Shown in pieces: positions 11,020 to 63,628 of a DNA stretch of 64,000 nt. The stretch comes from Candidatus Binataceae bacterium (GTDB lineage: Bacteria; Desulfobacterota; Binatia; Binatales; Binataceae). The position numbers and the translations under genes are program-made. Under the pieces are notes generated by a model. That model saw only the letters and a program-made list of their open reading frames with translations, searched no databases and was not told the origin of the DNA. Position 1 is the stretch's first letter. The number at the start of each line of letters is the position of its first letter. The stretch lies in the NCBI GenBank assembly GCA_963798375.1, contig CAWCTG010000022.1, positions 272,926-336,925 on the forward strand, written 5' to 3'.

Positions 11020-12364
11020 TCAGGACTCAGACAAGGAGCCTCTAGGTTCTGCGCTGGAAACCGACCACAGGTAGCAGGCAAACAAGAACCAAGCCGCGTC
11101 AGTCACGGTGCTGCGTAGCCCGAACGAGGTCACGTACAGGGCGATCTCGTAGTACAAGACGATCACCGGAATATACCCAGCGTTGTGCCCGCACACCTTG
11201 ACATACGCAAGGCTCGCCAAGACAGACAAAATCAAAAGAAAAATTGACGACCCGGGCAGTGTCCAATCGAACGCCATCTGCCGCAGCAAGCTGAACACAT
11301 TTGTGAGTTCGCTGCCGTTCGCGTTCGCGTAGGGCGAGACGTTAATCGAGTTCGGGATTTCGCTGGACGATGTATCCAAGCCACCCTGCGGGCCCGTCGA
11401 AACAGTACCGCCCTAGAGCCGGTGCTCTCCACACGTCCCAGTTCTCACTGAACCACCTGGAAAACGCTGCCGCGTAACCCACGTACTGCACTTCGGCGGT
11501 GCGGACGCTGAACTTCACCAGTACCTCTTCACGTTGGGTCGACACAGGAATTGCACCCGGAGCAAAGACACCCATACGTGCTACTTGCACCATCACATAC
11601 AAAGCCGTCAACGCTACGAGACCCGAACCCAACGTTGTCAACGCGCGGCGCCAGTTGCGCCACAGCCGCCGGTCGCCAATATACGCGCGCGTCGCGCAAT
11701 AGCTCGCAATCCAGTTGATAACGAAGCAAATCAGGCAGGTCCTCGCGCCGAGTACGAAGGTTTCCAGCAGCGCCGGCACTACCCCACTGAGGGAGGCAAG
11801 CCGCTCGAGCCGCGAGCCCCTGCGCGCGAAAATCATCCCTCCCAGGTAGCCAGCGAGATAGATAAACACGCTCAGAATCAGGAACGAGGTCGGCTCCCGG
11901 TAGTTCGCATCGGTGTATCTCATCCCCGCGAAATGCGACGCAACCAAACTCACTACGCTGACCGACACAAAAGCCCACAGCGACTGGCCCGACGTCGAGA
12001 CGAGATATACCACCCCAGCCGTACCCAGGATTGTTGCAGCGAGCAGAAGCGGGAGTGCGAGCGGCAGAGTCAGCCCTTGCGACGCTACTACCTCAGAGGC
12101 GGAGGTCCGATCCGAGGAACCCTCGCCGTTCCAGACCAGGAGACCCCCTAAATGCGCGGTACAACTCATGAAGAGTATCCATAGGATCCCCGGCCAGATC
12201 CGAAATTCGGGCGTGATCGAAAGACTCAGTACGCCTACTGTGGCCCACATTAGGCCGAAGAAAGCCCCGGGGGCCAGCCAGCTGCCAAGCTGATTGCGCG
12301 CCAGGCTAGCCTGCAGGATGATTAAGCCGACGACTGCTGCAGAAAGTGGCCAAGTGGTGTCCAT
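11020..12364 (-). pseudogene. wzy: O-antigen/EPS polymerase Wzy-like, frameshifted near 11342-11380 (real lesion or sequence error)
   Basis: The multi-TM ORF 11342..12364 stops at NPELD*. The overlapping ORF 11020..11379 supplies the expected Wzy C-terminus (TNVFSLLRQMAFDWTLPG followed by TM helices). Confidence 0.7.
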
Positions 12365-13358
12365 CGAAGTGCGTTTAGTCCCGGTCGCTCACCTTTGGAG
12401 ACGAAATCGCTTCTGCGTACCCGTTAAAAGTCTTGTAATCGAAACAACCCGGCTCAATGTTCGCCATTTGGAGCCGCAAATGTTGGCAGTGTTTCAGTTT
12501 GGGGTTTCTATCAATACCCATTCGGTTTTTACCGTAGCCGGCTCTGCTCAAGAGATTTGAAGAGCAGCTTAGCCTTGAGACCAATCAACGGCGGACACAA
12601 ACGATGGATCAAGAAGTACAACGAGGGGCACCATCTGGAGACGGCGCGTCCGACGGGTGGAATGAGCGCGCCGCCCGCACTCCTAACGATATCACAACCT
12701 GGATATAGCGAACGTACACATCGCCGCGTCACGGCCTGGTATCCGCGTCCGCCGTAGCGCCAATCGACGATCAAGAGGAAGCCGCCCGGTTTGGTGACTC
12801 GCGCCATCTCGCGAGCGATGGTTGCGCGGATGGCCGTTTGGGTCAGTTGGAAGAACATGGTTGATTCGATCACTAGATCAAAAGTGGCGTCAGGGTAAGG
12901 AATGTTGCAGGCATCCGCCACAATCAGAGTGCAAGGCGGAAGCCTCTGCCGTCCCCGTTCGATGGCGAGAGGACGAATATCGATCCCGTGCATCATTTGA
13001 GCCGGGAAGCCGAGTTCCAGCAGACGGAGCAGGCTCGCGCCGGCGCCGCAGCCGACATCAAGGATAGCAGCGTTACGACTCGAGCGTAGGCTCGCGAGGG
13101 GCCTCAAGACTTCGCGAATAGCGCGCTGATTGGCAAAATGTTGAAAGACGAGACCTCGGTTGAGTAGCAGGTCGTCGCGGTCAGCTCCTTTCTCGGCAAT
13201 TCTGCGCGAGCAAAATTCCTGAGCCTCGATAGCGTTCATGCACCCTCCAAAACCTCGGGGGTCCGATCTAATAAGTACGCGCTCTCGGCCATTTAGCACC
13301 TGAGGCTCGTGGGCTTGCGCAGTCACGCTAAATTCATCGAAGCGCGTTTAGTCCGGTC
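12362..13358. repeat. 24/25-bp direct repeat pair flanking a methyltransferase (12362-12386 and 13335-13358)
   Basis: catcgaagtgcgtttagtcccggtc versus catcgaagcgcgtttagtcc-ggtc (one mismatch, one indel). Confidence 0.75.
12529..13239 (-). CDS. Class I SAM-dependent methyltransferase
   Basis: ILDVGCGAG, GIDIR, DACNIPYPDATFDLV and VTKPGG; start placed at MNAIEA. Confidence 0.88.
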   Translation of the reverse strand: MNAIEAQEFCSRRIAEKGADRDDLLLNRGLVFQHFANQRAIREVLRPLASLRSSRNAAILDVGCGAGASLLRLLELGFPAQMMHGIDIRPLAIERGRQRLPPCTLIVADACNIPYPDATFDLVIESTMFFQLTQTAIRATIAREMARVTKPGGFLLIVDWRYGGRGYQAVTRRCVRSLYPGCDIVRSAGGALIPPVGRAVSRWCPSLYFLIHRLCPPLIGLKAKLLFKSLEQSRLR

Positions 13359-13382
13359 TTTGAGTGTGCTCAGCCGGGCGGC

Positions 13383-14399
13383 TCAGATCACATAACCGTA
13401 CTGGTGCATCAGCGGGCTCGTTATCACGCTCACTACCTTGCGGTCGCTTTCCTTCATTTTCTGACGCCACTCATCGTCGATCCGAAGGTCCACACCACCC
13501 GAGCTGAACTTCACCGGGTTACCGCTGACTGCGTGATTGACCCCGAGTTGGACGTGGGTCCCCTGAATCATCGAGAGATCGGGTCTGCCAAGGCCGAGCC
13601 GCTCCAGCGCACCCCCGATCGCTTCTCTCGGATCTCGCACGAGATCCTCATACCGTAACCGGGTATAAGGGATCCGGCGGTGCCTCGAGTGGGGGATCCC
13701 CGAAGCCCAGGCATTGCGCCAGGTCCACTGCAGCGCACTTGCCACAGCTCCTTGCCGAAGCAGAATCCGCGTGGCGCCGTCCTCGTCGAATGCGAGTTTC
13801 CGGCTTGCGCTCGAAATCCATTCCGGTTTGCGATGTTGCGAGGCGTCGTTGTCGCTGCGAAATATAGGTTTACCGCGTGAATTCGAGAACGCAACGGCCC
13901 GGCTGTCCCTCACCAGATGGAGCACCCTCAAATCGATGCCCGGAATTCGAGCCAGAATCAGCGCTTGTGACACTTCGCGGCTTGAGTCCACCACGACGCT
14001 CTTGCCCGCCACCTCGCGGATAGCGCGGTATAATCTGCTCAAGGCATCCTCGTAAACCCGTGGCAGTTTACTCCCGAGCAGTTCCGCGGGGACCCGGTTC
14101 AGCAGCATTAGCATCGGCGTATACCGTTCCCGAGCCAGCGACTTGTGCATACTCAGCATCGCGCTCACGTCCAACTGCTCGAACGAGCCGAACGCCTTCT
14201 CGACCACAGCACGCCAGAACTCGCAATGCCGGAAGCGCTCGCCGCATCCGCACGGTTCGTTCTGCTCGAAGGCCTCGTGCCAGATGTTCCTGAGCTCGCC
14301 AACATAGACCGAGTCACTCAAACCATTGAGTATCTGCCCGAGCAGAGTACCTCCGCTGCGGCCATCACCGGCAATAAAAACTACTCGGCTGCCTTCCAT
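13383..14399 (-). CDS. Sulfotransferase family protein
   Basis: 5'-PSB motif IAGDGRSGGTLL, 3'-PB motif HLVRDSRAVAFS and LRYEDLVRDP. The start is uncertain (ORF open to 14546). Confidence 0.88.
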   Translation of the reverse strand: MEGSRVVFIAGDGRSGGTLLGQILNGLSDSVYVGELRNIWHEAFEQNEPCGCGERFRHCEFWRAVVEKAFGSFEQLDVSAMLSMHKSLARERYTPMLMLLNRVPAELLGSKLPRVYEDALSRLYRAIREVAGKSVVVDSSREVSQALILARIPGIDLRVLHLVRDSRAVAFSNSRGKPIFRSDNDASQHRKPEWISSASRKLAFDEDGATRILLRQGAVASALQWTWRNAWASGIPHSRHRRIPYTRLRYEDLVRDPREAIGGALERLGLGRPDLSMIQGTHVQLGVNHAVSGNPVKFSSGGVDLRIDDEWRQKMKESDRKVVSVITSPLMHQYGYVI

Positions 14400-15770
14400 G
14401 ATATTCTCGGAAGGGTCAATCCAAATAACCGTATCCCTAAGTCTCTGCTCATTACCCGATGTAACCACGCGTTCCACAAACACATGCTCGCCGCGGTTGC
14501 AATTGCAGCGCCTACCGACCCGAGCTGCGGCACCAAAACGATACATAGTGCCACATCAGCGAGAGTCGCCCATGCGAAAATCCTGGCGACGGCGTGTTCC
14601 CGCCCGGTTACTATCGCTAGTATACCGACCGGCCCGGCCGCCGAATTAACCAGATTCCCGACCACCAGAATCGCCAAGGCACTGTATCCTGCCGAGAATC
14701 CTGGTCCAAACAGCCCCAGAATGCGACTGCCCCCCGTCCACAGTACGAGCGCGACCCCCAGCGACGGCCAGACCGCCCATGCCACGATGGTCCGGGCCAA
14801 CAAATCGAATCTGGTCCGATCGCCGCGACTCCACGCTTCTGACAGGATCGGTCCGCCCCTCGCGTTGACCACACTCAGGACGAGGCTCCCCAGCCCTGCG
14901 GTCTTAGCCGCTGCTGAATACAGCCCAGCCTCCCCAGGCGACCTGAACAGGCCCAGCGTCAGGAGATCGGCTCGGGACAGGACAACGTAACACCCTGTCG
15001 CCAATAGCAGCGGCAGGGACACTCTCAGCCACGAAACGGTCTCGAATCTTGGCTTCGATCCCCGCGCTGCCATCGGAAGCACGATTTGTGAAACAGCAAA
15101 CTGCAGGATTAGCGTGACGGAGAGAGAAAAGTATCTCGCCATCATCAACAGGGTCGCGCTGAGATGCCCGCGCATACCCTTCAGCGCCAGCGCGGATCCC
15201 AGGCACAGCAAAGGATCGGCCAGAAACGGAAACAGATAGGCAAGAGCGACGCGGTTGAGAGAGTGGCCGATCTCGCTTTCCAGATAAGGACAGGGCTGTG
15301 GCCGGGACGAGCCAGGTCCCGAGTAACAGCACTACAATGTCGAGGCTGCCCGGTCGTACGATCGACAAAACAATAGTCAGCAGCGCCGCCAATGCAATGC
15401 CGGCCGCGACGGTAAGCTGCCTGCTGCGCCGCACTATTCCCCGTAGTCCAGTCCAATCATCTCTCGCCACGTAGCCGGGCACAAACCGCATCAGTGCGAT
15501 AGGCAGCCCAAGTCCACTGACCATTGCCAGGATTTGCCCAAGCGCGATCGCGTAAACGTAGTTGCCATACTCGGCCGCTCCCATCCAGCGCGCGAAAAGC
15601 ACCTGCGAGCCGTACTGCAGGCCCGCGCTCGCAATCCAGATGAGAGCGACCGCCGCAGAACCCGCCAGCGGGTGCGGCACCACGCCATTTGCTTCAGGCT
15701 CGGGAGCGAGCTCCCTTCCCGCGCCAAGCACTCGGGGCGGTTGTGCGGAACCAATGCTTTCCTTGCGCAA
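14381..15770 (-). pseudogene. wzx: Wzx-like flippase/polysaccharide biosynthesis protein, frameshifted near 15285
   Basis: The N-half (QVLFARWMGAAEYGNY...LGLP) and C-half (RADLLTLG, EAGLYSAA, LVPQLGSVGAAIAT) lie in different frames. Removing one base at tcctta|t|ctggaa joins them. Confidence 0.75.
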
Positions 15771-18151: not shown

Positions 18152-18152
18152 T

Positions 18153-19277: not shown

Positions 19278-19278
19278 C

Positions 19279-30977: not shown

Positions 30978-32039
30978 ATGAAGCGTGTATGCGCCTTTGC
31001 GCTTTTAGGTAAGAGGGTTCTGAGCACAAGCACGATAATTCTGCTGGCCGCGGCCATCGCGACGTTCGCGTGGTCAGGGATGGCGGCGGCAGAGGAAGAG
31101 GAGGCTGGGCAGGAGTTGCAGAACTATTTCAGCAACGCCAACGCAATTCTTGCGGGAGATGCCCTCGTCAATATCACGGCTCCCTTCGAGGGTAATGCAA
31201 CAGCCCTCACCGCGGCCGCGCGAGAGGGCGAAACTTGCGCGATGATCTACGTCTTTGATACCAGCCAGGCGATGGAGGAATGCTGCGGATGCCCGCTGAC
31301 CGCAGATGGTCTGTTGACCCTCAGCATCAGCGGCAGTTTGGCGGGGAACCCGGCGGCGTCACAGACCATCCTCAACGACGGCTCGATCCGCATTCTCTCG
31401 ACCTTGCCCAATGCCAGTCCACCTCCACCGCCGGTGGAGACTCCCGCATATGAAGGTTGCGACCTCGCCACCGGCGTCTGCTGCGACCCAAGCGCGCAGG
31501 GCACCGGCTTCACGCTGACTCCCGGTAGCGAATTGGCGGCTTGGGCGCAACACGTACAGACTACCCAAACCACCGAAAACGAGTTCGAGGTGGCTCCGGC
31601 TGACCCCTCAGACTACGGCGGATTGCCGGCAGCGTGCGCCGGTCTCGTCAGCGTGGGTAGCGGACAAGGCGTCTGCACCTGCCTCTTCGTAACGCCGACC
31701 CCGACCCCGTCCGCCACCCCGACGGCAAGTCCAACGGCAACCGCCACCATAACCGCAACCGCGACGGTAACCGCAACCGCGACGCCAACTACAACAGCAA
31801 CCCCAACCGTAAGCGCTACGCCGACGGCAACCGTAAGCGCGACGCCAACCCGAACGGCAACTCCGACGGCAAGCGCAAGCCCGACGGCGACCCCAAGCGC
31901 GACGGCAACCTCAACGGCAACCGCCACCGCAACCGCTACGGCGACGGCAACCCGAACGGCAACCGCCACCGCAACCGCTACGGCGACGGCAACTGCCACC
32001 TTGAGTCCGACTCCGACGGCGACCCCGACGCCGGGCTGA
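30978..32039 (+). CDS. Secreted Cys-rich hypothetical protein with C-terminal Thr/Ala/Pro tail (paralogue C)
   Basis: AGGAGA RBS before ATG 30978; homologous to 865..1614 across the Cys-rich domain, then about 115 aa of TPT/TAT repeats. Confidence 0.85.
   Translation: MKRVCAFALLGKRVLSTSTIILLAAAIATFAWSGMAAAEEEEAGQELQNYFSNANAILAGDALVNITAPFEGNATALTAAAREGETCAMIYVFDTSQAMEECCGCPLTADGLLTLSISGSLAGNPAASQTILNDGSIRILSTLPNASPPPPPVETPAYEGCDLATGVCCDPSAQGTGFTLTPGSELAAWAQHVQTTQTTENEFEVAPADPSDYGGLPAACAGLVSVGSGQGVCTCLFVTPTPTPSATPTASPTATATITATATVTATATPTTTATPTVSATPTATVSATPTRTATPTASASPTATPSATATSTATATATATATATRTATATATATATATATLSPTPTATPTPG
31692..32033 (+). repeat. Low-complexity coding repeat (Thr-Ala/Thr-Pro)
   Basis: Runs of acggcaacc/gcgacg encoding TATATA/TPT, including an internal tandem duplication near 31917-31995. 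Confidence 0.85.
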
Positions 32040-38890: not shown

Positions 38891-39393
38891 TGGCAATGAA
38901 AACGAACCGCGCCGCGGCGAATGATCCGGCCGCCCGGCTTGGCGATCCGCGCGTGCGGGAGTTTGTCGCCGGCGCGCGCATCGCCCATCTGGCGACCGCC
39001 GACGGCGCCGGCGCTCCGCACAACGTCCCGCTCTGCTACTGGTTCGACGGCGAGCGCATCTACTTCGCGATCGACGAGAAACCCAAGCGTCAAACCGGTT
39101 TGGCGCTCAAGCGGATGCGCAATATCGCGGAAAATCCGCGCGTCGCTATCGTGATCGATCATTATGAAGAAGATTGGTCGCAACTCGCGTACGTGCTGAT
39201 TCGCGGACACGCGCGCGTGGTCGAAGACGCCGAAGAATACATCGGCGCGATACGTCATCTGCGCGACAAATATCTGCAGTACCGAGCGATGAGTCTGACG
39301 CCGGAGAAAAATCCAATCGTGAAGATCGAACCGGTCAGCGTGCACGTGTGGGGCGCGCGTTTCAGCAGGGGTGACCCCTGCACCCAGTGTTAA
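38890..39393 (+). CDS. PPOX-class probable F420-dependent oxidoreductase (Rv0121-like)
   Basis: ARIAHLATADGAGAPHNVP, AIDEKPK, RMRNIAENPRVA..DHYEEDWSQL; ATG overlaps the HEAT stop. Confidence 0.88.
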   Translation: MAMKTNRAAANDPAARLGDPRVREFVAGARIAHLATADGAGAPHNVPLCYWFDGERIYFAIDEKPKRQTGLALKRMRNIAENPRVAIVIDHYEEDWSQLAYVLIRGHARVVEDAEEYIGAIRHLRDKYLQYRAMSLTPEKNPIVKIEPVSVHVWGARFSRGDPCTQC

Positions 39394-39403
39394 GAGAAGA
39401 TGC

Positions 39404-40618
39404 GTGACTACGCGCCTTGACGAAATCGCACTTGCGCTCGGCCACGCGCGACTCGACGGATGGCTGTTCTATGACTTCCGCTTGAGCGACCCGCTCGCGT
39501 ATCGAATCCTCGGCCTTTCGGAGGACGGCATCGCAACCCGGCGATGGTTCTGCTTCGTCCCGGCGCATGGCAAGCCGCGGGCGATCGTGTCCGCGGTCGA
39601 AGCGCATCGGCTCGACGCGCTCGGTGTCGAAAAAATCGTCTATCGTTCGCACGACGAAATGCTCGCGGCATTGCGCACGGCGCTTGGCGACGCGCGGCGA
39701 ATCGCGATGGACTATTCACCGGGATGCGCAATTCCGTACGTCTCGCGCGTCGATGCGGGCACGGTCGAAATCGTCCGCGCGATGGGAATCAAGGTCGTCA
39801 CGGCGGCCGATCTTATTCAGCGCTTCGAGGCGAGCTTGACGCGCGAGGAACTGGCCGGCCATCGGCGGGCGGCTCGCGCACTTCGATCGATCGTGGACGA
39901 AACCTTCAGTGAGATCGGGCAGTCGATTTCGGCCGGGCGGCCGGTCAGCGAAGTCTCCGTGCAGGAGTCCGTGATGGCGCGGTTTGCCGCCCAAGGTCTG
40001 GTGACCCACGCGCCGCCGATTGTCGCCGTCAATGAGCATAGCGCCGATCCGCATTACGGGCCGACCCCGAAACACGACCGCGCGATTGGCCGCGGCGATT
40101 TCATCCTGCTCGACTTGTGGGCCAAGGAGACCGCGCCCGACAGTATCTACGCCGACTTCACCTGGGTCGCGTTCGCCGGCGACGAGGTTTCCGCCGAACA
40201 CGCGCGGGTGTTCAAAATTGTCGCGGATGCGCGCGACGCGACGGTGGATCTGGTGCAGCGTCTAGTCGCAGCCGGCGAACCGGTCAGCGGCCGCGAAGCC
40301 GATCGGGCTGCGCGCTCGGTGATCGAGGCCGCCGGCTTCGGCGACGCGTTCGTACATCGCACGGGCCATTCGATCGGCCGCGAAGTGCACGGCACCGGCG
40401 CGAATCTGGACTCGCTGGAAACGCTGGACGACCGCATTCTCATCGACAACACATGTTTTTCGGTCGAGCCGGGAATCTATTTGCCGGGAAGATTCGGCGT
40501 GCGCAGTGAGCTTGACATGACGATCGAAAACGGGCGCGCGCCGGTCAGCGGCGAGCCGCGCCAGCGCGAGATCGTCGCGCTTCTGGCTGGGGTCACTTCC
40601 AAGCCCAGCATGAGTTGA
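39404..40618 (+). CDS. M24-family metallopeptidase (Xaa-Pro aminopeptidase-like)
   Basis: DGWLFYDF, ADPHY, LLDLW, YADFTW, HRTGHSIG and FSVEPGIY; GTG start at 39404. Confidence 0.92.
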   Translation: MTTRLDEIALALGHARLDGWLFYDFRLSDPLAYRILGLSEDGIATRRWFCFVPAHGKPRAIVSAVEAHRLDALGVEKIVYRSHDEMLAALRTALGDARRIAMDYSPGCAIPYVSRVDAGTVEIVRAMGIKVVTAADLIQRFEASLTREELAGHRRAARALRSIVDETFSEIGQSISAGRPVSEVSVQESVMARFAAQGLVTHAPPIVAVNEHSADPHYGPTPKHDRAIGRGDFILLDLWAKETAPDSIYADFTWVAFAGDEVSAEHARVFKIVADARDATVDLVQRLVAAGEPVSGREADRAARSVIEAAGFGDAFVHRTGHSIGREVHGTGANLDSLETLDDRILIDNTCFSVEPGIYLPGRFGVRSELDMTIENGRAPVSGEPRQREIVALLAGVTSKPSMS

Positions 40619-40623
40619 TTGTA

Positions 40624-40646
40624 GTGAAACCCACCGTGGGTTTCAC
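40624..40646. other. Perfect 10-bp hairpin downstream of the peptidase
   Basis: gtgaaaccca-ccg-tgggtttcac. Confidence 0.7.
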
Positions 40647-40738
40647 ACTTCCTTGGGCACGGGTGACCTCCTTCGGCTTCGCTCAGGACAGGCTCTGCAC
40701 CCAGTGAAAAGTGAAAAGTGAAGATGCGGGCGGAGTTT

Positions 40739-40834
40739 ACCCTGAGCGAAGTCGAAGGGGCCCTGTCAGAAGGGGTTGATCAAGAAGAGATCGCGCGTCC
40801 GTTTTTCTGTCATCCCGACCGAAGTGGAGGGACC
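40739..40834. repeat. REP-like palindromic motifs (ccctgagcgaagtcgaaggg; gtcatcccgaccgaagtggagggac)
   Basis: The first is an approximate reverse complement of the module at 40670-40688. The second shares 16 nt (gtcatcccgaccgaag) with 60573-60588. Confidence 0.7.
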
Positions 40835-41069
40835 CGCGGATCCTTGCCTCGCCCTTCATCGGGAGGTGTCACAGACACGCGGCTGCGCCGGCGGCGCGGG
40901 TGAGGGACATTTGCGCGGCGCGATTGTCTCATGCGCCGTATTGCGCCAGCGCGAGATCGCCACGATCCTCCCCCGCCCACTTCCAAGGCCGAGCCGAGCG
41001 TGTAAACAATGGTCGCCCACTTTAAACCAGGCCGAGCCTGTAAAACTAAGCTGTTCCTCAGAAACGAAC

Positions 41070-41852
41070 ATGAATTTCAAGCAATCCAACTTTGGCGAAA
41101 TCCTGGACTCCGAACGGGAAATGGTCTTGCGAGCGGAGGGACGTTTCGCGGCGTATTACGTGAACGCATTCCGCTTTTGTGAACTTTTAGCCGGGTTCGT
41201 TGAGACGGTGGATCCCGACCGGATGATATTTATCTTGTTCCTGTCACAAGTACGCAAGCATCACACGCTCGCCCTTTTTTCGGCAGTCCGCCTGCACCGC
41301 ATTCAAGCCATGATGGACTTGCGCCAGACGCTTGAAGCTGGAGCTTGTGCGGCGTACGCGATTGCTAATATCAATCCAGCCGACTTTGCGGACAAGGACG
41401 AAGACGGCATTCTGAGTCCTTCCCAAGAACTGGCCAAGAAACGCTACAAGTGGCTCGAGCAGAATTTCGAGGAAGGTTCAAACGCGATCAAGGGGATAAA
41501 GGAAATCATCAACAAATCGAGTGCGCACTCTAACATTGCGGATGCGCATTTGAACTTCAATTTTGACGCCGTTAACGGGCATTTCGATACACCCTTCTTC
41601 GACTTCGAAGACGATCATATCGTCAAGACCGATCTGTGGCTCATCGCGAACGTGGCCATGGGACTGATGCGGCTCTTTTCCAAAATCAACAGCACCCTCA
41701 ACGTGGTCGTCTTCACCGACGAATTCGAGGCGCGGATAAAGGAATTAGGAACTGAGAACGGCCGGCTTCGAACTGAGATGATGCAGACGGAACGCTATCA
41801 GCGGGTCAGTAAACTGCTTGAGAAGCGGGCTGGGAAGCCAACACGATCGTGA
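41070..41852 (+). CDS. Hypothetical alpha-helical protein (accessory cargo, possibly HEPN/DUF5677-like)
   Basis: Long ORF with visibly lower GC than neighbours; contains AMMDLRQTLEAG and SSAHSN. The upstream extension to 40776 runs through repeats and was discarded. Confidence 0.7.
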   Translation: MNFKQSNFGEILDSEREMVLRAEGRFAAYYVNAFRFCELLAGFVETVDPDRMIFILFLSQVRKHHTLALFSAVRLHRIQAMMDLRQTLEAGACAAYAIANINPADFADKDEDGILSPSQELAKKRYKWLEQNFEEGSNAIKGIKEIINKSSAHSNIADAHLNFNFDAVNGHFDTPFFDFEDDHIVKTDLWLIANVAMGLMRLFSKINSTLNVVVFTDEFEARIKELGTENGRLRTEMMQTERYQRVSKLLEKRAGKPTRS

Positions 41853-41909
41853 CTTTACTTGCGACGGGAACCGTTGCAGAAGGCTGCTAAGATGGTGAGG
41901 TCACACAAC

Positions 41910-42440
41910 ATGGACGAAAAAGTCGCTAGTGTTCTACGCAAAGCGTCCGAAGCTTGGCGAGACGTGATGGCAATCTACGCCGGAGCAATGTGCAGCGCGC
42001 AGATTCTTGAAGGCGAGCTGGTTCAGGTTTTGTACTTCCTCCGCATAAAAAGTGGCGAACTGAAGGAACCAGGTTTCGACTGGGCCTACCACCAGATGAT
42101 GCGACAGAAGCCGAGCGAGGTCCTGGATTGGATTCGAGGCGCGGGAGGCAACCTTTCCTACGAGAATGAGAAGATCATCCGACAGGCACTACGCCTTAGA
42201 AACTTCTTGGCTCACGAATTCTTTCACAAACACAACCCGGTGATGAGTGGAACGCAGTGTAAACAAATCGCTTCAAAACTTAAGAAAATTGACGCAGAGC
42301 TGGAAACGGCTTTCGAGCTGCTCCAGCCGCTCCGCCAAAAGCTAGAGACGCAGCTCGGCCTCTCAGTTGACCGGCAGATCACTTCGACGAACTTTCAAAA
42401 GCGCTTCGTCGAGGCTTTCGAGTCATTCAACGACGAGTAG
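41910..42440 (+). CDS. Hypothetical protein with Rx4H (RNFLAH) HEPN-like motif
   Basis: GAGG RBS before ATG 41910; helical protein with ALRLRNFLAHEFF. Confidence 0.7.
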   Translation: MDEKVASVLRKASEAWRDVMAIYAGAMCSAQILEGELVQVLYFLRIKSGELKEPGFDWAYHQMMRQKPSEVLDWIRGAGGNLSYENEKIIRQALRLRNFLAHEFFHKHNPVMSGTQCKQIASKLKKIDAELETAFELLQPLRQKLETQLGLSVDRQITSTNFQKRFVEAFESFNDE

Positions 42441-42517
42441 CGCCAGCGTGAGATCGCCGCGATCCTGGCCACGCCCACTTCCAAGCCCAAGGCGGGCGTG
42501 GCAAGCATAGTTCGAGC

Positions 42518-43285
42518 ATGATTCGGGCGGTCATATTCGATCTCGACGGGACCCTCGCCGACACCGAGCGGTTGCATTTCGCGGCCTTCAACGAAGCGTT
42601 GCGTCCCGAAGGGATCGAAATCCCACGCGACGAATACTTCGCGCGGCTGATTGGACTTAACGATCACGATTGTTTCGCCACGATCCTGCGCGAGAATCGG
42701 ATGGACGCGGGCGAGGAACATATCGCGAGCCTGATCGCGCGCAAAACCGCGGTCTATCAAGCGATGCTTGCGGATCGCGAGGTTCTCTACCCGGGCGCCG
42801 AGAAGTTCGCGCGCGAATGCGCGCATCGGTTTCCGCTGATGATCGCGACCGGCACGCTGCGCGCCGAGGCCGAAGCGATTCTTCGCCGCGCCGGACTTCG
42901 CGAGTTGTTTCTCGACATTATCGCGGCGGAGGACGTCGAGCGCGGCAAGCCCGAGCCCGACGGTTTCATCGCGGCGCTTGGCCGGCTTGGATTTATCCTG
43001 CGCCATCGCGATCCGATCCGGGCCGAGGAATGCATTGCGGTCGAGGATACGCGGGCCGGAATCGAAGCGGCGCATCGCGCGGGCATGAAAGCGATCGCGC
43101 TATGCCATAGCGCGCCGGCGGCCGATCTGGCGGCGGCCGAGGTCGTGCGCGATTCGATTTGCGGGCTTGACCTGGACGAGATTTTGCGCGCGCTGCGCAG
43201 GGGTGACCTCCTTCGGCTTCGCTCAGGACAGGCTCTGCACCCAATGTTAAGGCCGTGCTCCGTTGTCGCGCGCAGCCCCAGCTAA
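42518..43285 (+). CDS. HAD-family phosphatase (beta-PGM-like)
   Basis: IFDLDGTLADTE, GKPEPD and AVEDTRAGIEAA; the C-terminus reads through a repeat element. Confidence 0.92.
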   Translation: MIRAVIFDLDGTLADTERLHFAAFNEALRPEGIEIPRDEYFARLIGLNDHDCFATILRENRMDAGEEHIASLIARKTAVYQAMLADREVLYPGAEKFARECAHRFPLMIATGTLRAEAEAILRRAGLRELFLDIIAAEDVERGKPEPDGFIAALGRLGFILRHRDPIRAEECIAVEDTRAGIEAAHRAGMKAIALCHSAPAADLAAAEVVRDSICGLDLDEILRALRRGDLLRLRSGQALHPMLRPCSVVARSPS

Positions 43286-43286
43286 C

Positions 43287-43344
43287 GTCTTAATACTGGC
43301 CTCCCGTGCCAACGGGTCTTAATGCTGGCCAGCCGTGCCAACGG
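43287..43344. repeat. 29-bp tandem repeat, two copies
   Basis: gtcttaatactggcctcccgtgccaacgg / gtcttaatgctggccagccgtgccaacgg (26/29). Confidence 0.8.
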
Positions 43345-43443
43345 CCAGGGGTGCCCCCTGCACCCGATGAAAAGTGAAGAGTAAAATGCTTAAAATCGAA
43401 AACCACAGCGATCGCAATTTTTCAACGCCCTGACAGGAGCACG

Positions 43444-47863: not shown

Positions 47864-49099
47864 ATGACGAAACCAGCGCCGGTGTACGTATTGGGCGGAG
47901 CGCAAACCGACTTTGCCCGCAATTGGTCGAAAGAAGGAAAACATTTCGTGGCGATGATGCGCGAGGCAACTTTGGGCGCGCTCGAAGCTACCCGGATCGA
48001 GCCGCGCGAAGTTGAAACGGCTCACGTCGGCAACTTCGCCGCCGAGCTGTACGCCAAGCAGGGCCATATCGGCGCATTTTTCCTCGAAATCGATCCCACT
48101 TTCTCCGGGCTGCCGACCAGCCGTCATGAGGCTGCATGCGCGTCGGGCTCGATCGCATTGATCGCGGCGTCGGCCGATATCGAAGCCGCGCGCTACGACC
48201 TGGCGTGCGTGGTCGGCGTCGAACAAATGAAGACCGTCGATTCGACCATCGGCGGCGACATCCTGGGCACCGCGGCGTGGTACGAGCGCGAAGCCAAGGG
48301 AATCGAATTCCCGTTTCCGAAACTGTTTGGCCGGCTCGGCGACGAGTACGACAAGCGCTACGGCCTCAAGGATGAACACCTCGCGCACATTTCGGCGGTG
48401 AATTATTCCAACGCGAAGCGCAATCCGAACGCGCAGACCCGCAACTGGTTCATGAGCGAGAGTCACGCGCAGCACGCGAGCAAATTCAACCAGGTCATCG
48501 GCGGCCGCATCAAAGTCAGCGATTGCTCGCAAGTCACGGACGGCTCGGTCGCGCTTTTCCTCGCGTCGGAAAAATTTGCGAGCGCGTGGGCCAAACGCAA
48601 CGGCAAGACGCTCGCCGACATTCCGCGCATCCTCGGATGGGGCCATCATACGGCGCGGCTCGAATTCGACACCAAGGTCGCCGAGAGCAGGGACAACGCC
48701 TACGTGTTGCCGCATACACGCCAGGCAATTCTCGACGCCTTCAAGCGCGCCGGCATCGCGTCCGCCGCCGAGCTGTCGGGAATCGAGACGCACGACTGTT
48801 TCACCACCTCCGAGTACATGGCGATCGATCATTTTGGGATCACCAAGCCGGGCGAATCGTGGAAGGCGGTCGAGGAAGGCGTGATCGAGCTCGGCGGCAA
48901 GCTGCCGATCAATCCGAGTGGTGGGCTGATAGGCGCTGGCCATCCGGTCGGCGCGACCGGCGTGCGCCAGATGCTCGATTGCCATCGGCAGATAACGGAT
49001 AGCGCGGGCGAGTACCAGGTCGAGGGTGCGAAGAAATTTGCGATGCTGAATATCGGCGGCAGCGGCACGACCAGCTGCGTGTTCATCGTCGGCAAGTAA
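47864..49099 (+). CDS. Acetyl-CoA acetyltransferase (thiolase family)
   Basis: HEAACASGS, ETHDCFT, NPSGGLIGAGHPVGATG and NIGGS. Confidence 0.93.
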   Translation: MTKPAPVYVLGGAQTDFARNWSKEGKHFVAMMREATLGALEATRIEPREVETAHVGNFAAELYAKQGHIGAFFLEIDPTFSGLPTSRHEAACASGSIALIAASADIEAARYDLACVVGVEQMKTVDSTIGGDILGTAAWYEREAKGIEFPFPKLFGRLGDEYDKRYGLKDEHLAHISAVNYSNAKRNPNAQTRNWFMSESHAQHASKFNQVIGGRIKVSDCSQVTDGSVALFLASEKFASAWAKRNGKTLADIPRILGWGHHTARLEFDTKVAESRDNAYVLPHTRQAILDAFKRAGIASAAELSGIETHDCFTTSEYMAIDHFGITKPGESWKAVEEGVIELGGKLPINPSGGLIGAGHPVGATGVRQMLDCHRQITDSAGEYQVEGAKKFAMLNIGGSGTTSCVFIVGK

Positions 49100-49218
49100 G
49101 CGACGTCGGGGGGAGGGGTATAGGCTATTAGACACGAAGTTATCCGAGAGAGAAAAGATATGTCCGGAGGCGAGGGGGGGGGGTAAGAGTGGAGGTAAAG
49201 ATCGTCGGCAAGTAAGCG
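49085..49218. repeat. Exact 18-bp direct repeat of the thiolase 3' end (49085-49102 and 49201-49218) around a 98-bp G-rich insert
   Basis: atcgtcggcaagtaagcg occurs twice; the insert contains G6-A-G4 and G10 runs. Confidence 0.85.
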
Positions 49219-54689: not shown

Positions 54690-55634
54690 GTGCCAGCACT
54701 CACGTTCACACTTGCGCCACGGCCACCGTTCAGACTCGACATGACGGTGTGGGCGCTTCGGCGCCGCGCGCATAACATCGTCGATCGATTCGACGAGGGC
54801 GTCTGGCGGCGCATCCTGGTGATCGGCAGGTCGCCGGTCGCGGTCGCAGTCAGGCAGACACGGCGCGGTTCGCGTCCGGAAATCGAAGTGCGGATCAGAG
54901 CCGCGCGGCCGCGAGCGGTGAGGGCGGAAGTCGCCTCGATTGTGACCAGGATGCTTGGGCTGGAGCGCGACCTTTCGGACTTCTACCGGCTCGCGCGCGG
55001 CGATGCGCGCATCCGGGAACTGGCGGATCGTATCCGGGGGATGAAACCGGTGCGCTATGCCACGGTGTTCGAAGCGTTCGCGAATGCGGTCGCGTGCCAG
55101 CTCGTGTCGCTGAGCGCGGGGATGCACGTACTGAACCGGCTCACGGAGGCTTGCGGAATCGCCGGCGAGGTTGATGGCGCGACGGCGCCGATGCGATCGT
55201 TCCCGGCCGCGTCCGCGGTTGCGCGCTTGAATCCGGACGCGCTGCGCGCGCTCGGGCTCAGCAGGCAGAAGGGGGAATACCTGATCGGACTCGCGCGGTT
55301 GGCGATCGATCGCAAGGACCGCGATTTCGCGTCGATAGAAGCGCTCGAGGACGACGACGCCGTCGCGCGCCTTTCGACGATTCGCGGCGTGGGACGCTGG
55401 ACCGCGGAGTACGTGATGCTGCGCGGTTTCGGCCGAATCAACATTTTCCCGGGTGACGATGTTGGCGGGCGCAACAAACTCTTCGAATGGCTCGGGGTGG
55501 ACGGCGAGCCCACTTACGACGGCGTGCGGCGGGCGCTCCAGCGGTGGCATCCGTACGCCGGACTCATCTATCTTCATCTGATTGTGAACGGACTCGCCGA
55601 CGATGGCCATTTCGCGCAATCTGCCGCCGGGTAA
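54690..55634 (+). CDS. alkA: DNA-3-methyladenine glycosylase II
   Basis: AVACQLVS, GLSRQK, HhH motif LSTIRGVGRWTAEY and FPGDD. Confidence 0.85.
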   Translation: MPALTFTLAPRPPFRLDMTVWALRRRAHNIVDRFDEGVWRRILVIGRSPVAVAVRQTRRGSRPEIEVRIRAARPRAVRAEVASIVTRMLGLERDLSDFYRLARGDARIRELADRIRGMKPVRYATVFEAFANAVACQLVSLSAGMHVLNRLTEACGIAGEVDGATAPMRSFPAASAVARLNPDALRALGLSRQKGEYLIGLARLAIDRKDRDFASIEALEDDDAVARLSTIRGVGRWTAEYVMLRGFGRINIFPGDDVGGRNKLFEWLGVDGEPTYDGVRRALQRWHPYAGLIYLHLIVNGLADDGHFAQSAAG

Positions 55635-55697
55635 GGCAATGGGAAATCGCGATACTTGCGCGCGGGCTCGATCGCGCGCAACTGAAGGAGAGAAGAC

Positions 55698-59376: not shown

Positions 59377-59672
59377 TCGTCTCTCCACCTATCGTATTTG
59401 CCCACACCACCGCACACGCCGGTTTGGCTGCGCGGATGGTGATGCTTGGGGCGGCAGGCGCGCGTGCGTGCGCATTCCTGAATGCCGCCAGCATCAGCAC
59501 ATTTTCACTTTTCACCGGGATGCCTTCGATTGTAAGGCGCAGAGCGGAATGTGCTTGCCGTCGCGGTCAACCAGATTACCGGATACTGACGCGGTGCGCT
59601 ACCTCCGATTGCATGGGCACGGTCAGGCGCGCTTTGTCATTGGCGAAAGCGTGCGGTATGGATCGAGCCACT

Positions 59673-60554
59673 ATGGCATCACAAGTGAAGCAACGAGTCG
59701 TACGCGCGTCGAACCTGAATTTCACGGTGCTCGAGATGGGCGAAGGACCGCTGGTGCTGTGCCTGCACGGCTTCCCCGACACGGCTCATTCGTTTCGCCA
59801 TCAGATGCCCGCGCTGGCGGCGGCGGGATTCCACTGCGTCGCGCCGTTCATGCGCGGCTACTCGCCCACCGAGCCCGCGCCCGACGGCCGCTACGACTCG
59901 CCGGCGCTGTCGGAGGACGCACTCGCGCTGATTGCGGCGCTCGGCTACAAGGACGCGATCGTGTTCGGCCACGATTGGGGCGCAGTCGCGGCATACGGCG
60001 CCGCGGCGGCCTCGCCGGATCGCATAAGCCGGCTCGTCACGGCGGCAGTCCCGTATGGCTCGAAATTTTTCGAAGCGCTGGTCACCAGCTACGCGCAGCA
60101 GCGCCGCTCCTGGTACATGTTCTTTTTCCAGACGAAAATTGCCGAGGCCGCGATGAGTTTCAACGACTTCGCGTTCCTGGAAAAGTGTTGGGCCGACTGG
60201 TCGCCGGGCTGGAAATGGGCGCGCGAGGACATGGAAGCGCTCAAGCGATGCTTTCGCGCCAAGGGCACGCTCGAGGCGGCCATCGGCTACTATCGCGCCA
60301 CGCTCGGGCCGGTGCTCAGCATGCCGGTCGATCTGAAAGTGCTGGCGGCCGCGATGGGAACGCCGATCAACGTGCCGGCGATGATGCTTCATGGGCGCGA
60401 CGACGGATGCATCGGCGCGGAGTTGCTCGACGGGATGGAGAAGCTGTTCCCGAAGGGATTGAAGATCGAGATCGTGCCGGGCGCCGGGCATTTCGTGCAT
60501 CAGGAGCGCCCCGATCACGTCAATGAACTGATTCTCAAGTTCCTGAAATCCTGA
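59673..60554 (+). CDS. Alpha/beta hydrolase (epoxide hydrolase-like)
   Basis: LHGFPD, RGYSP, GHDWGA, HGRDDG and GHFVHQERP. Confidence 0.92.
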   Translation: MASQVKQRVVRASNLNFTVLEMGEGPLVLCLHGFPDTAHSFRHQMPALAAAGFHCVAPFMRGYSPTEPAPDGRYDSPALSEDALALIAALGYKDAIVFGHDWGAVAAYGAAAASPDRISRLVTAAVPYGSKFFEALVTSYAQQRRSWYMFFFQTKIAEAAMSFNDFAFLEKCWADWSPGWKWAREDMEALKRCFRAKGTLEAAIGYYRATLGPVLSMPVDLKVLAAAMGTPINVPAMMLHGRDDGCIGAELLDGMEKLFPKGLKIEIVPGAGHFVHQERPDHVNELILKFLKS

Positions 60555-60889
60555 GCGGAAACTTTTTGCGTCGTCATCCCGACCGAAGCGCAGCGACCCC
60601 GTCTCTTTTTCTTCGCCGCGTGCCGGTGCACCGCCCTGACCCGAGAGCCTGCATGACCGGATGTTGGCGCTGGTGCCACACGCACTGGCGCCCTCCGGGG
60701 CTAGTGGCGCACAGCTCTCTTACCGCTATGAATTGCCTGTTTTGAAAGTTAAAAATAAAATTACAGCTAATTGCATAAAGATACTTGCTTTGTAATTAAA
60801 TAATAGGTAAAAGCAGGTATCTACATCACTTGGGAGAACATGGCATGCGAGGAGCGAATTGCCAGCAGCAGCGTAGTACATCCGATTAC

Positions 60890-63390
60890 ATGTCGACCGA
60901 ACAATCAGTGACCGAGGCCCATTCGCGTCGCGACACGCGTCGGCGACAGCCGATCGCAATCGTGGCGCTCGGGTGGCCACTCCTGTTTCTCTTAGCGGCG
61001 CTTTCCACGACGGCGTTCGTGCAGCCGGCCGCGGCCGCTACCTGCCCTGCTGGTTATCGCGCGCTGACTTTCACCAACAATTGCGGTTACGACGTGTACC
61101 TCGGCGAGGGTCTCAGCCAGCCGCAGGTTGACGGAACGCCTGTTTGTACCCAGGATTCTGACTGCACCAATGGCACCACAAACCCGAATCTGAAATGCGT
61201 TGCCGACACGTCAGATGCCACAACGGGGGCATGCACGATCACCTGCTCAAAGGATTCAGATTGCGGCCCCAATCAGGTTTGTTTTTCAGGAAACGTTCCT
61301 CCTAGCGCAAACGCCTGGTACGACGTCAATAGCACCAACCCCGTGGGGGAGTGTTGGTTTGCGAACCTGGAGCCTACTCCGCTGTCCGCTCCGGCGCCGA
61401 GTTCCAATTGGGACCTTCCGGCCAACGGTGGACAATCCGTAATCTGCGTTCCCGAGGCTCAAGAAGCATCGGGCAAATCTGCCGAGGGGGCTTCGTGCAC
61501 GCAACCTTCGGATTGCGCAAGCGACAATTGCTACGATGCCATCGCCGGCTATGAGTGCATTGCGGGCGATACGAACTGCACTTGCGGATCCTTGTTTACC
61601 TGGGGCGGCAATTTCTGGGGACGCACAGGCTGCTCGCCTACAAGCGGTGGCTTGACCTGCCAGACCGGAGATTGCGGCGGCGCGGGTAACGGATTGTCTG
61701 GACTACTCGATTGCAGCGGCAACACAGCGAACACGCCGCACGGGCCAGCAAACCCCGCATATGCAGGCGAGTTCACACTTGAGGTTCCGCCCAGCGGCAC
61801 AAGTAACGTTGGCGCGCAAGATTATTACGACACCAGCATGGTCAACGGTTTCAACGTGGGCTTTTCGATGGTACCGGTTTCGGGCACGTATTCACCCGCA
61901 TTTTCTGTTTCAAGTCCTAAGCAATGCGGCCCGGCCGGCGAAACAGTTGATCAGTCCGGCACCGTTACAGCCTGCCCTTTTAACCTGCTTAGCAGCTGTC
62001 CTTCCAGTCTGACCTACAACTCTCCATCGGGTACGCAGTCCGTGGTTGGTTGCTGGGCGCCGACCCAGGCTTGCCTGTCGGGCACTACCACCCAGCAGGC
62101 GGCACTTGGATGCACCGGCAACGTCCCGTTCCTCTGCGCGACAACGTTGGACTGTCCCTATGGGCACCAAGCCACGCCGGAGGGAACACCCACGCCGGAG
62201 CGAACGTTGACCTGCAACATTTCACCGAGCCAGGCATTCGGCCAATGCCAATGCATGCAAGATACCGATTGCCCAAAGGGTTTCACCTGCGAAGGATCCC
62301 CCACGGGTACCTGCACGTATGAGGAAGGCCCGCCCGCAACGTGGGCCGATCTCTATGGGTGCCATAATTTCTACGACTTTTCGCCGTACAATGCCGTGGA
62401 CTACCAATCGTGGTTAACAGGTATCGCTGAGGAAACCGGCATAGTGTGCGGGTGCCCTTCCTGTCAACTGCCGGGGAATGTCTAGCTGACAGCATCAACT
62501 GGGAAAAGGTTCCCGCCGGCAGCACTGGCCCGGTTGCCGCTGCGGCGCCGACCACCTCCGCCGGAGATTTCTATCTCGCTTTCCACAATTCGTGCCCCGT
62601 CGCCTACACTTATCCTTACGACGACGAGGCTGCCAGCTTCGGCTGCACCAATTCGGGAGCGTCGGTAGGCCCGTCGTACAACATCACCTTCTGTCCGGCA
62701 GGATCCGCCGCAACGCCGACCGCAACGCCGACTGCATCGGCAACCATGTCGGCAACCCCGACTGCCACGCCAACAGCGACTCTCACCGCGACACCGACGC
62801 CATCCAAGACCGCCACGCCAACCAGGACCGCGAAGCCCACCAGGACGGCGACGCCGACCAGGACCGCGACACCGAAGCCGACCAAGACCGCGACGCCCAC
62901 CAGGACGGCGACGCCCACCAAGACCGCGACACCGAAGCCGACCAAGACGCCAACCGCCACGCCAACCCCGGTTGCAAAGTGCCCGGTGAACATATACTTG
63001 AGCACCAGTCCCACAGGTACCCTCGCGTTCGGGGATGTCGACGATAAACAATCGGCTACTTTGCCTCTTACCGTCAGCAACGACCTCAGCGACACGCTCA
63101 AGTTGACGACGGCTATAAGTAATTCGGGTGGAACGAAACAGGCGGACGATTTTAAAGTCAACAAAGGCAAGAAGACGGCCGGCACTTGCACGTCGAATCC
63201 TAACCTAGGCGGGAGCAGTTCCTGCGCCTATAACATTACCTTTCAGCCTAAAGGTCATGGCGCCGGGGCCGTGCAAGCGCAATTGACGATCACTGGAAAG
63301 TTCAGCTCCAACGGAAAGACTTGCGAGCAAACCGTCTCGGTGACTTTGGCCGGCGATGCAGAGGCGCCAGCGGAGACGGAGCGGCCGTAA
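60890..63390 (+). CDS. Secreted Cys-rich thaumatin-like protein with Pro/Thr linker and C-terminal Ig-like domain; frameshift at ~62463
   Basis: TFTNNC, NFWGRTGC, CQTGDCG, GEFTL, DYYDTSMVNGFN, then (second frame) CPVAYTYPYDD..SFGC and YNITFCP. Adding one G restores CGCPSWSTAGEC. Confidence 0.85.
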
Positions 63391-63396
63391 TGGTAA

Positions 63397-63435
63397 AATC
63401 GCGGCGTGGCGCTAACCGCGCGCCACGCCGCGATT
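63397..63435. terminator. Perfect 16-bp hairpin after the thaumatin-like gene (possible terminator or stabiliser)
   Basis: aatcgcggcgtggcgc-taaccgc-gcgccacgccgcgatt; no clear U-tract. Confidence 0.5.
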
Positions 63436-63628
63436 AAGCAGAGCGGCGTTTGAGCTCGCCGATGCTTAAGTTCCTGAAATCCTGAGCGGAAACTTTTTGC
63501 GTCGTCCTGAGCGCAGCGAAGGATCTCTCGCGCGCAAGCGCGCGCCCGCGCAGGCAGCAGGCCAGATCAACGACCCGATACTGGAATTCCTGGAATCAGC
63601 ATCCTAAGGTCACTGAGAAGAACGTCAC

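Follow-up and report, generated by a model that had tools for sequence, protein, structure and literature searches.

Duplicated gene ends flanking accessory DNA in Candidatus Binatus: recombination scars as the proposed explanation

The window analysed here is the whole of a 64-kb stretch (GC content 61%) of contig CAWCTG010000022.1 from Candidatus Binatus (Binatia), an uncultured soil lineage. Its first 30 kb hold a polysaccharide biosynthesis and export cluster, and the remainder carries housekeeping-type enzymes (Pfam). At four sites in the window a short piece from the end or the start of a gene is present more than once, with accessory DNA lying between the copies (Table 1). The genes concerned encode an M24 metallopeptidase (site 1), a thiolase (site 2), an alpha/beta hydrolase (site 3) and a wzy-like membrane protein (site 4). 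The four duplications had been noticed in a preliminary description made from the sequence alone, and each of them was recovered in place and beyond chance expectation. They mark genuine sites of insertion that are polymorphic and where cargo is acquired, lost and swapped. The pattern needs no dedicated mobile-element enzyme, and the duplicated gene ends are best explained as scars of recombination and not as the work of a mobile element with an enzyme of its own.

The window was compared with contigs and loci of its relatives, which are referred to by L-numbers (e.g. L096). M24 peptidase orthologues at 13 Ca. Binatus loci from metagenome-assembled genomes (MAGs) are 86-90% identical in amino acid sequence, and gene order is conserved. 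The frequency of such repeats was surveyed for 1125 gene ends and 1117 gene starts in all sequence compared, together with a reversed-sequence control. The control yielded 1-2 hits at a score of ≥16-18, and the window alone gave three gene-end hits and one gene-start hit. Chance origin of the repeats is ruled out by this control and by the empty alleles described below. No motif is common to the four repeats. In agreement with the preliminary description, a Pfam scan of the ~53 open reading frames (ORFs) revealed no recombinase, integrase or transposase, and no gene for a REP-associated tyrosine transposase (RAYT; REP, repetitive extragenic palindrome) was found; these negatives concern the 64-kb window.

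Table 1. Features at the four sites (positions in the window; MITE, miniature inverted-repeat transposable element; AF2, AlphaFold2; SAM, S-adenosylmethionine; nt, nucleotides; aa, amino acids)
Site	Feature	Position	Strand	Basis or remark
1	M24 metallopeptidase gene	39371-40618	+	Pfam PF00557, E = 1e-35
1	Copy A, present M24 3′ end	40545-40618	+	Sequence comparison
1	Composite REP/MITE cluster between copies A and B (~320 bp)	40619-40939	+	GTGAAACCCACCGTGGGTTTCAC hairpin, GGGTGACC..CTGCACCC unit, GTCATCCCGACCGAAG
1	Copy B, displaced M24 3′ end, 1-nt deletion	40940-41013	+	Alignment
1	Copy B′, partial extra M24 end, contiguous with cargo	~41014-41050	+	84% identity to 3′ part of L098 copy B
1	Two-gene cargo	41070-42440	+	GC 50-54% vs 62-68% in flanks
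1	Cargo protein 1, 260 aa, all-helical (predicted)	41070-41852	+	AF2 model
1	Cargo protein 2, 176 aa, Rx4H motif	41910-42440	+	Sequence motif
1	Copy C, resident (ancestral) M24 3′ end	42427-42517	+	92% identity to L098 copy C
2	Thiolase gene with first 18-mer copy (49085-49102, spans stop codon)	47864-49102	+	Pfam thiolase domains
2	98-bp G/A-rich insert	49103-49200	+	Between 18-mer copies
2	Second 18-mer copy, then normal thiolase terminator	49201-49218	+	Exact repeat
3	Alpha/beta hydrolase gene, 293 aa, with copy A (60530-60575)	59673-60575	+	Pfam PF00561
3	2.9-kb insert: REP, AT-rich leader, thaumatin-like gene, right-end module	60576-63460	+	Sequence/ORF reading
3	Secreted thaumatin-like gene, broken by 1-nt deletion at 62462	60846-63390	+	Intact 848-aa ORF in L115
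3	Right-end module with 15-bp-stem hairpin	63375-63460	+	Common to L081
3	Copy B of hydrolase 3′ end	63461-63506	+	Also in L081, L114, L115
3	Remnant C, divergent hydrolase-type C-terminal fragment (..QINDPILEFLESAS*), tentative	~63560-63607	+	Sequence reading
4	wzy-like membrane protein gene with leader/ATG repeat copy (12357-12387)	11020-12387	-	447 aa in conspecifics
4	Insert	12388-13334	-	Class I SAM methyltransferase and ~97-nt 'tail'
4	Class I SAM methyltransferase, small-molecule type	12529-13239	-	Pfam
4	~97-nt 'tail'	~12388-12480	-	Present without gene in L089/L090
4	Distal wzy leader/ATG copy	13330-13360	-	Identical to single copy of empty allele L085/L086

At site 1, the three M24 3′ ends that had been reported earlier (A, B and C) are joined by a further partial copy, B′, and together they form a nested array of displaced gene ends in the order A, REP cluster, B and B′, cargo, C. 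The TGA stop codon of the present M24 gene is supplied at the junction of copy A with the REP/MITE element. The TGA of copy C overlaps the ATG of the HAD gene at 42518, and the same overlap is found in insert-free genomes; M24 and HAD are directly adjacent in eight Binatus species, which represent the empty site. The copies are 73-81% identical to one another, that is, they differ by 19-27%. A and C agree at 50/63 positions, A and B share a 17-nt exact core (GCGCCAGCGCGAGATCG), and the start points of B and C lie within ~13 nt of each other. By alignment, copy B resembles the allelic type of L003/L006 and copy C the resident type. Duplication of the target by one enzyme is not what copies so different and so similar to the allelic types of different species point to.

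The complete layout of A, REP cluster, B, B′, cargo and C is also present in L096, a noisy but independent contig. In the sister lineage L098-L101 (~92% nt identity), a single B copy, the cargo and C lie upstream of HAD, and M24 is lost. The single B copy of L098 aligns to B plus B′ of the window and encodes a complete alternative C-terminus (..TPTSKAKPSL*), and copy B was therefore formerly a working gene end. In L098-L101 (~5440-6000) it is the whole M24 gene that is missing, PNPOx being followed by REPs and then by copy B, and the end points of the deletion lie at REP units, which would fit REP-REP recombination. In L102 (5649), a REP cluster, copy B and the cargo are 99.8% identical to L098, and the left side has another gene context (OprB, acyl-CoA dehydrogenase, TetR) joined exactly at a GGGGTGACCCC REP. 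The L102 contig ends within the site-1 cargo.

The site-1 cargo is foreign in composition, its GC content being lower than that of the flanks (Table 1). The gene pair occupies the same locus in L096 and L098-L101 and is found elsewhere only in L102, in the other left context. Cargo protein 1 belongs to a family of unassigned function which is widespread in bacteria of the candidate phyla radiation (CPR), archaea and Binataceae. Its AF2 model is all-helical (pLDDT, the predicted local distance difference test, 89.6) and has no fold match in the PDB. The pair had been labelled HEPN-like, which was not confirmed by Pfam, PADLOC, NCBIfam or PDB sequence and fold searches, all of them negative; the sole feature in favour is an RNFLAH (Rx4H) motif in the 176-aa protein 2.

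A second nested array is found at site 3, in the order A, cargo, B, REP, C. Copy A comprises the final eight codons of the hydrolase gene with its stop codon and runs on for another 21 nt, and 60530-60575 matches 63461-63506 at 44/46 positions with 39 nt exact (E = 4e-17, local blastn-short). A 16-mer REP begins at 60573 and overlaps the end of copy A, and a second REP variant, GTCGTCCTGAGCGCAGCG, starts at the end of copy B, from 63501. The right edge of the repeat is the exact point where the two REP variants diverge. The motif of remnant C matches the C-termini of 120 hydrolase orthologues and is conserved in L081. Site 3 is reproduced by L114 and L115, two independent assemblies, at 99.4-99.7% identity. 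L081 (97.9% identical) retains the left flank up to the stop codon (sequence shared to 60557) and the right one from 63375, including copy B and remnant C, and holds a different cargo of 3.5 kb with a Pro-kumamolisin/Kelch protein. Copy A extends over at least 21 bp in L081, where it ends at TGAGCG, versus 46 bp in the window, 21 nt further.

The missing G at 62462, as compared with L114/L115, splits the thaumatin-like gene into ORFs 60830-62485 and 62446-63390, and would represent either a sequencing error or a pseudogene. The intact 848-aa protein of L115 comprises a signal peptide, a Cys-rich thaumatin-like part, a Thr/Pro-rich linker and a C-terminal Ig-like domain. The gene has no close homologue, the best being 58% identical and in unrelated context. 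The nearest thaumatin-like homologue (56% identity; L116/L117, 365-4012) adjoins ku and ligD, with a GC content of 57.5% and no Binatus REPs. Just past the cargo gene of the window lies a perfect 15-bp-stem hairpin, ATCGCGGCGTGGCGC / GCGCCACGCCGCGAT (63396-63436), which belongs to a 103-nt right-end module common to both site-3 cargos. The hairpin does not represent a repeat family, as it was not found elsewhere in the relatives' loci compared.

REPs touch sites 1 and 3 only. The 16-mer REP GTCATCCCGACCGAAG occurs twice in the window in exact form, at 40809 and 60573. The statement that REPs of one type abut both sites is borne out as to type by this 16-mer, and as to position at site 3, where it adjoins copy A; the site-1 occurrence is internal to the cluster and not at a junction. 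The composite REP/MITE family, with the parts TTGATTGAATGTGAAACCCGCCGTGGGTTTCAC, GGGGTGACCCCTGCACCCAGTG and GATGCGGGACTTCGTCCCTGTTAG, is common in Binatus intergenic regions and frequently provides the gene ahead of it with a stop codon. It is found in the window at 39368-39400, 40619-40939 and 43195-43380, and the PNPOx-like protein of the window ends in residues (..GDPCTQC*) that a REP encodes. In five relatives (L002, L008, L009, L015 and L033) a homologous REP/MITE cluster sits in the same M24 3′ end (near 11200), where it truncates M24 and provides its stop codon; the duplication on either side of the cluster ('CACTT') is only 4-5 bp long. The insertion of the REP itself therefore makes no long duplications, and the REP-linked capture that had been suggested loses ground with this observation.

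Mobilisation through the REPs, in which a transposase of the RAYT/IS200-IS605 type or another one acts on a REP/MITE and carries neighbouring DNA along, would account for the REPs abutting sites 1 and 3, for the same 16-mer occurring at both, and for the L102 cargo joined to other left context exactly at a REP. The loss of M24 in the L098 lineage could likewise, judging from REP positions, reflect REP-REP recombination. We regard this explanation as very improbable, given that sites 2 and 4 are without REPs, that the cargos are not REP-bounded on both sides, and that the short duplication in the five relatives is all that the element leaves on its own insertion. REPs gather in permissive intergenic spots anyway, and HUH-type transposition, as is well established, makes no target duplication.

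At site 2 the repeat is ATCGTCGGCAAGTAAGCG, exact at 18/18 positions (starts at 49085 and 49201; local blastn-short E = 1e-6). The 98-bp insert opens with 7 nt, ACGTCGG, that resemble the beginning of the repeated 18-mer. L097 (99.2-99.6% nt identity) has an exact empty site with one 18-mer, and its positions 2269-2286 are matched by both window copies. In five other species a single copy is likewise followed by the terminator, without the insert. L096 carries at this site an unrelated ~870-bp insert flanked by a ~90-nt duplication that takes in the final eight codons of the thiolase gene, its stop codon and the terminator. Repeat lengths of independent events at site 2 are thus 18 bp (window) and ~90 bp (L096), and the left repeat edges are 6 nt apart. 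The 98-bp insert is seen in the window only, among the assemblies compared, and has no match in the relatives' loci compared, the plasmid collection or Rfam; the insert of L096 has none in those loci or in Rfam. A look-up of the site-2 context with the PhzF-like protein returned no record.

The site-4 repeat takes in the ATG of the wzy-like gene together with its 5′ leader; on the gene strand it reads GACCGG[G]ACTAAACGC[A/G]CTTCGATG. Positions 12362-12381 and 13335-13354 agree at 19/20, and one indel extends the match to ~25 nt, so the 24/25 quoted earlier was slightly generous. The distal copy heads a 4-codon ORF (ATG AAT TTA GCG TGA) just downstream of the sulfotransferase gene 13383-14546. 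L085/L086, from peat metagenomes (95-98% nt identity), have an empty site with one copy, and 7012-7031 of L086 are matched by both window copies. The methyltransferase was found at this locus only. It is identical in eight independent contigs (seven other metagenome assemblies and one Joint Genome Institute (JGI) sample), and both junctions are reproduced at 98-99.7% identity by the four that were aligned (L106, L107, L109, L113). As to a recombination-tract boundary at the junction, sliding identity to L086 differs only mildly and is not decisive. An extra A at 11352 splits the wzy-like gene of the window into 11342-12364 and 11020-11379, and L106/L109 have one 447-aa ORF. The spacer between the sulfotransferase and wzy genes holds a 242-aa secreted protein with collagen-like GP repeats in L088/L094 (4993-6001), which belong to another lineage, edged by a 5-nt CTCAA repeat only; it holds a 300-bp filler in L092/L095 and the 97-bp 'tail' in L089/L090.

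Alleles with a single repeat copy, as expected from the preliminary description, are thus present in relatives for sites 1, 2 and 4. At site 3 no empty allele was found among the relatives compared, and only the alternative cargo represents another allele. The exchange of cassettes that it had proposed is evident at site 3 (L081) and site 2 (L096), where other cargo lies between the same kind of repeats. It had also allowed for assembly artefacts, which would arise if strain alleles were joined end to end by the assembler. The window differs in homopolymer length from other conspecific assemblies at two positions (the extra A at 11352 and the missing G at 62462) and is for this reason probably a long-read consensus. 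These indels, the 98-bp insert confined to the window and the noise of the L096 contig could be taken to favour an artefact. Sites 1, 3 and 4 are, in contrast, reproduced base for base in independent assemblies from other samples, and L081 has the site-3 repeats around a different cargo. For these three sites an artefact is rejected, and the window-only 98-bp insert of site 2 may be one; as an account of the whole pattern an artefact is extremely unlikely.

The same pattern is not confined to the window. In L104 a 105-nt region spanning the start of chrA (chromate transporter) is repeated 754 nt upstream (4230-4334 and 4983-5088) at 89-93% identity. The repeat has an accessory block on either side, one a 108-aa ORF and the other a tautomerase, and both blocks are absent in L082-L084. 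L030, another Binataceae MAG, holds arrays of gene-end copies at 4838-5720 and 9060-9560. A 151-nt element is present there three times, in each case beside a repeat of the final 70 nt of a SpoU-like methyltransferase gene. Another gene end occurs twice at a spacing of 176 nt, and between the two lies part of the 5′ region of the next gene. As for the origin of the inserts, no match was found in the relatives' loci compared except in short patches, namely REP units, the site-3 right-end module (L081) and the site-4 'tail' (L089/L090). The cargos gave nothing in the plasmid collection, and Rfam was negative for the window, L030 and L096.

Other variation in and around the window was also recorded. 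A methyltransferase gene at 10054-10992 (within 10030-11016) is precisely absent from the conspecific L108, with no flanking repeats, and L085/L086 have 3.9 kb of other genes in its place. L081 (2523-3271) carries crcB and a DUF190 gene between a HhH-GPD glycosylase and a RidA-like gene; both are absent at 55630-55644 of the window, where there is no long flanking repeat. In-frame tandem repeats of 12-18 nt in three ORFs (31691-32029, 36214-36315 and 62706-62960) encode low-complexity linkers, rich in Asn/Gly/Arg, Ala/Thr and Thr/Pro, respectively.

The best explanation for these observations, held with about as much confidence as doubt, is homology-anchored recombination of incoming DNA that bears a copy of a gene end. 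Accessory DNA would enter hot spots beside conserved genes in the Candidatus Binatus population, and the incoming DNA would combine the cargo with a copy of a few dozen bases from the end (or the start) of the adjoining conserved gene. This copy may recombine with the resident gene through the short homologous stretch, either by a single crossover of a circularised fragment (Campbell-type) or by one homologous and one illegitimate join, as in homology-facilitated illegitimate recombination (HFIR). The incoming copy would become the new working gene end and the resident copy would be displaced to the far side of the cargo. Repeated rounds would yield nested arrays (A/B/B′/C at M24 and A/B/C at the hydrolase), recombination between the repeats would restore an exact empty site, and an ordinary double crossover in the flanks would swap the cargo. 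Selection would keep only events that spare both neighbouring genes, and this may be why the repeats span stop or start codons.

Several features of the repeats are in line with homology-anchored recombination. The site-1 copies differ and match different allelic types, and a proximal copy that arrived with the incoming DNA is an easier explanation of this. At site 3 the right edge falls where REP variants diverge, which is where homology between donor and recipient would end. Variable boundaries, as at sites 2 and 3, are expected if each event brings its own stretch of homology. The recombination route and the donor origin of copies A and B are what we infer from these features.

Template switching would likewise copy part of the target twice, in that a polymerase re-enters upstream of its exit point and 18-100 nt are duplicated. 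It would explain repeats that are identical or nearly so at sites 2 and 3, differ in length between events and are too short for RecA, the ACGTCGG echo at the start of the 98-bp insert, and insertions adjoining hairpins (the terminator and the REPs). The complex local gene-end copies mixed with a piece of the next gene in L030 also suit it. Against it speak the divergence of the site-1 copies, which match different allelic lineages, and the cargo, which is compositionally foreign and apparently not copied from the same genome. The thiolase end is conserved across species, so that the identity of the 18-mers is uninformative on origin, and no templating source was found for any insert. Template switching is on balance an unlikely account, though one to be reckoned with.

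Homology-anchored recombination itself meets with a number of difficulties. The repeats at site 2 (18 bp) and site 4 (22-25 bp) are at or below the usual minimum for RecA exchange. A 116-bp circle is implausible, and the window's site-2 event therefore needs another route; this 18-bp/98-bp event falls outside the favoured one and may reflect template switching, repair of a break or an artefact. For none of the cargos did the relatives' loci compared yield a donor allele. Left boundaries nearly coincide at site 1 (B and C) and at site 2 (window and L096), which could reflect a preferred break site. Identity to the empty-allele contig L086 shifts only mildly across the site-4 junction (98.4% versus 95.0%). 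No long flanking repeat accompanies twelve further insertion polymorphisms of relatives or two conspecific indels (the 10030-11016 methyltransferase and crcB/DUF190), and the process is therefore not a general one for gain and loss.

One may also speculate on a lineage-specific trans-acting activity in Binataceae that would break DNA with a long stagger at structures on gene boundaries and capture DNA there; a nuclease or recombinase, capture linked to non-homologous end joining (NHEJ), or a retroelement may be its agent. It would amount to cassette capture without att sites or element-borne enzymes, and would account for how densely the events lie, for left boundaries that nearly coincide at sites 1 and 2, for repeats too short for RecA, and for the right-end module common to two different site-3 cargos. 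We give it a slim chance only. A dedicated trans-acting or REP-linked enzyme, as proposed in the preliminary description, is not indicated by boundaries that vary, repeats that share no motif and REPs at two sites out of four.

Since the defining features of known systems were looked for and not found, the inserts are not regarded as integrative elements, integron cassettes or REP-mobilised units. Integron gene cassettes were rejected, as the window has no intI, Rfam yields no family and the 63396-63436 hairpin is present at this locus only. Integrative elements at gene 3′ ends, e.g. ICESt1 and the cis-mobilisable elements (CIMEs) at fda, rebuild the 3′ (or in other cases 5′) end of their target, produce direct repeats and pile up in tandem. 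Integrase-less cassettes of the CIME kind could owe their movement to tyrosine or serine recombinases that act in trans from elsewhere in the genome, the gene ends being attL and attR. Nested arrays at sites 1 and 3, the start points of B and C so close together and the exact empty sites are compatible with this. ICESt1/CIME-type elements need a tyrosine recombinase and a fixed att core, whereas the 64 kb contain no integrase, the four would-be att sequences are unrelated, independent events at one site differ in their boundaries (left edges 6 nt apart at site 2), the element ends are without conserved arm-type sequences and the cargo is as small as 98 bp. Cassettes of this kind are accordingly improbable here. 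The minimal mobile elements (MMEs) of Neisseria are different cassettes between the same flanking genes, swapped by homologous recombination. The cargo swap at site 3 fits this scheme, but a double crossover in the flanks leaves no duplicated gene ends.

Displaced or orphan C-terminal arrays were reportedly described by Jackson and colleagues in 2009. In the arrays of Rhs, contact-dependent inhibition (CDI) and type VI secretion system (T6SS) genes, 3′ ends are serially displaced by DNA carrying a new end and cargo, old ends are left downstream as orphans, and no integrase is involved. Sites 1 and 3, with an intact gene followed by displaced 3′-end copies separated by foreign DNA, are alike in these respects. 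Those arrays concern polymorphic toxin genes with long conserved cores under toxin/immunity selection. The targets here are, in contrast, housekeeping-type enzymes (M24 peptidase, thiolase, alpha/beta hydrolase) and a wzy-like gene, with no polymorphic toxin and immunity gene among them; only 20-90 nt are duplicated, and one case is a 5′ end. HFIR has been proposed for the displaced 3′ ends of T6SS/Rhs arrays (Kirchberger et al. 2017, PMC5361080). In E. coli, recircularised DNA with one-sided homology gave 109-950 bp duplications in 56/60 recombinants (Amarir-Bouhram et al. 2011, PMC3240628). Such single-crossover integration likewise leaves an insert flanked by a direct duplication of variable size without any site-specific enzyme; it is a laboratory plasmid system in E. 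coli, and homologies of 18-46 bp and events in nature are outside its evidence.

The pattern fits what has already been described as insertion with long target duplication (ILTD; Nobusato et al. 2000, Gene 259:99; Furuta, Abe & Kobayashi 2010, PMC2853133). ILTD is reported from many bacteria, with long duplications of the target that extend across a start or stop codon and with no mobility genes; one example is a 46-bp repeat in H. influenzae that overlaps 15 bp of a gene 3′ end (PMC2853133). The mechanism is unresolved; ILTD has been described for restriction-modification genes and tentatively tied to the DNA cleavage by these systems, and selection for intact neighbours was noted for the cases spanning start or stop codons (PMC2853133). 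The cargos here are, by contrast, a two-gene unit, a methyltransferase, a thaumatin-like protein and a 98-bp non-coding piece; no restriction-modification system was found as cargo (Pfam, PADLOC), the sole defence-related hit being a partial match to PADLOC mad2. Furuta et al. (2010) define ILTD by repeats >30 bp (PMC2853133). Repeats exceed this length at site 1 (~63-90 nt), site 3 (46), L096 (~90) and L104 (105), and fall below it at sites 2 (18) and 4 (20-25), that is, at two of the four sites of the window, which also differs in its two nested arrays and in having several sites within 64 kb.

The mechanism of ILTD has been open since 2000 and has been discussed mostly for restriction-modification genes. 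Here, at least six such events with other cargos lie within 64 kb of one uncultured soil lineage, for which public metagenomes hold empty, filled and alternatively filled alleles at >99% identity. Crossover points, donor alleles and circular intermediates could be readable from the sequencing reads of such a population sample. If general recombination explains the pattern, a small cargo between duplicated gene ends is not in itself evidence of a new mobile element. The likeness to ILTD is close: a related genome lacks the insert, both direct repeats (tens of bp long) align to a single-copy target, repeat length is variable, mobility genes are lacking, and the repeats lie over a start or stop codon.

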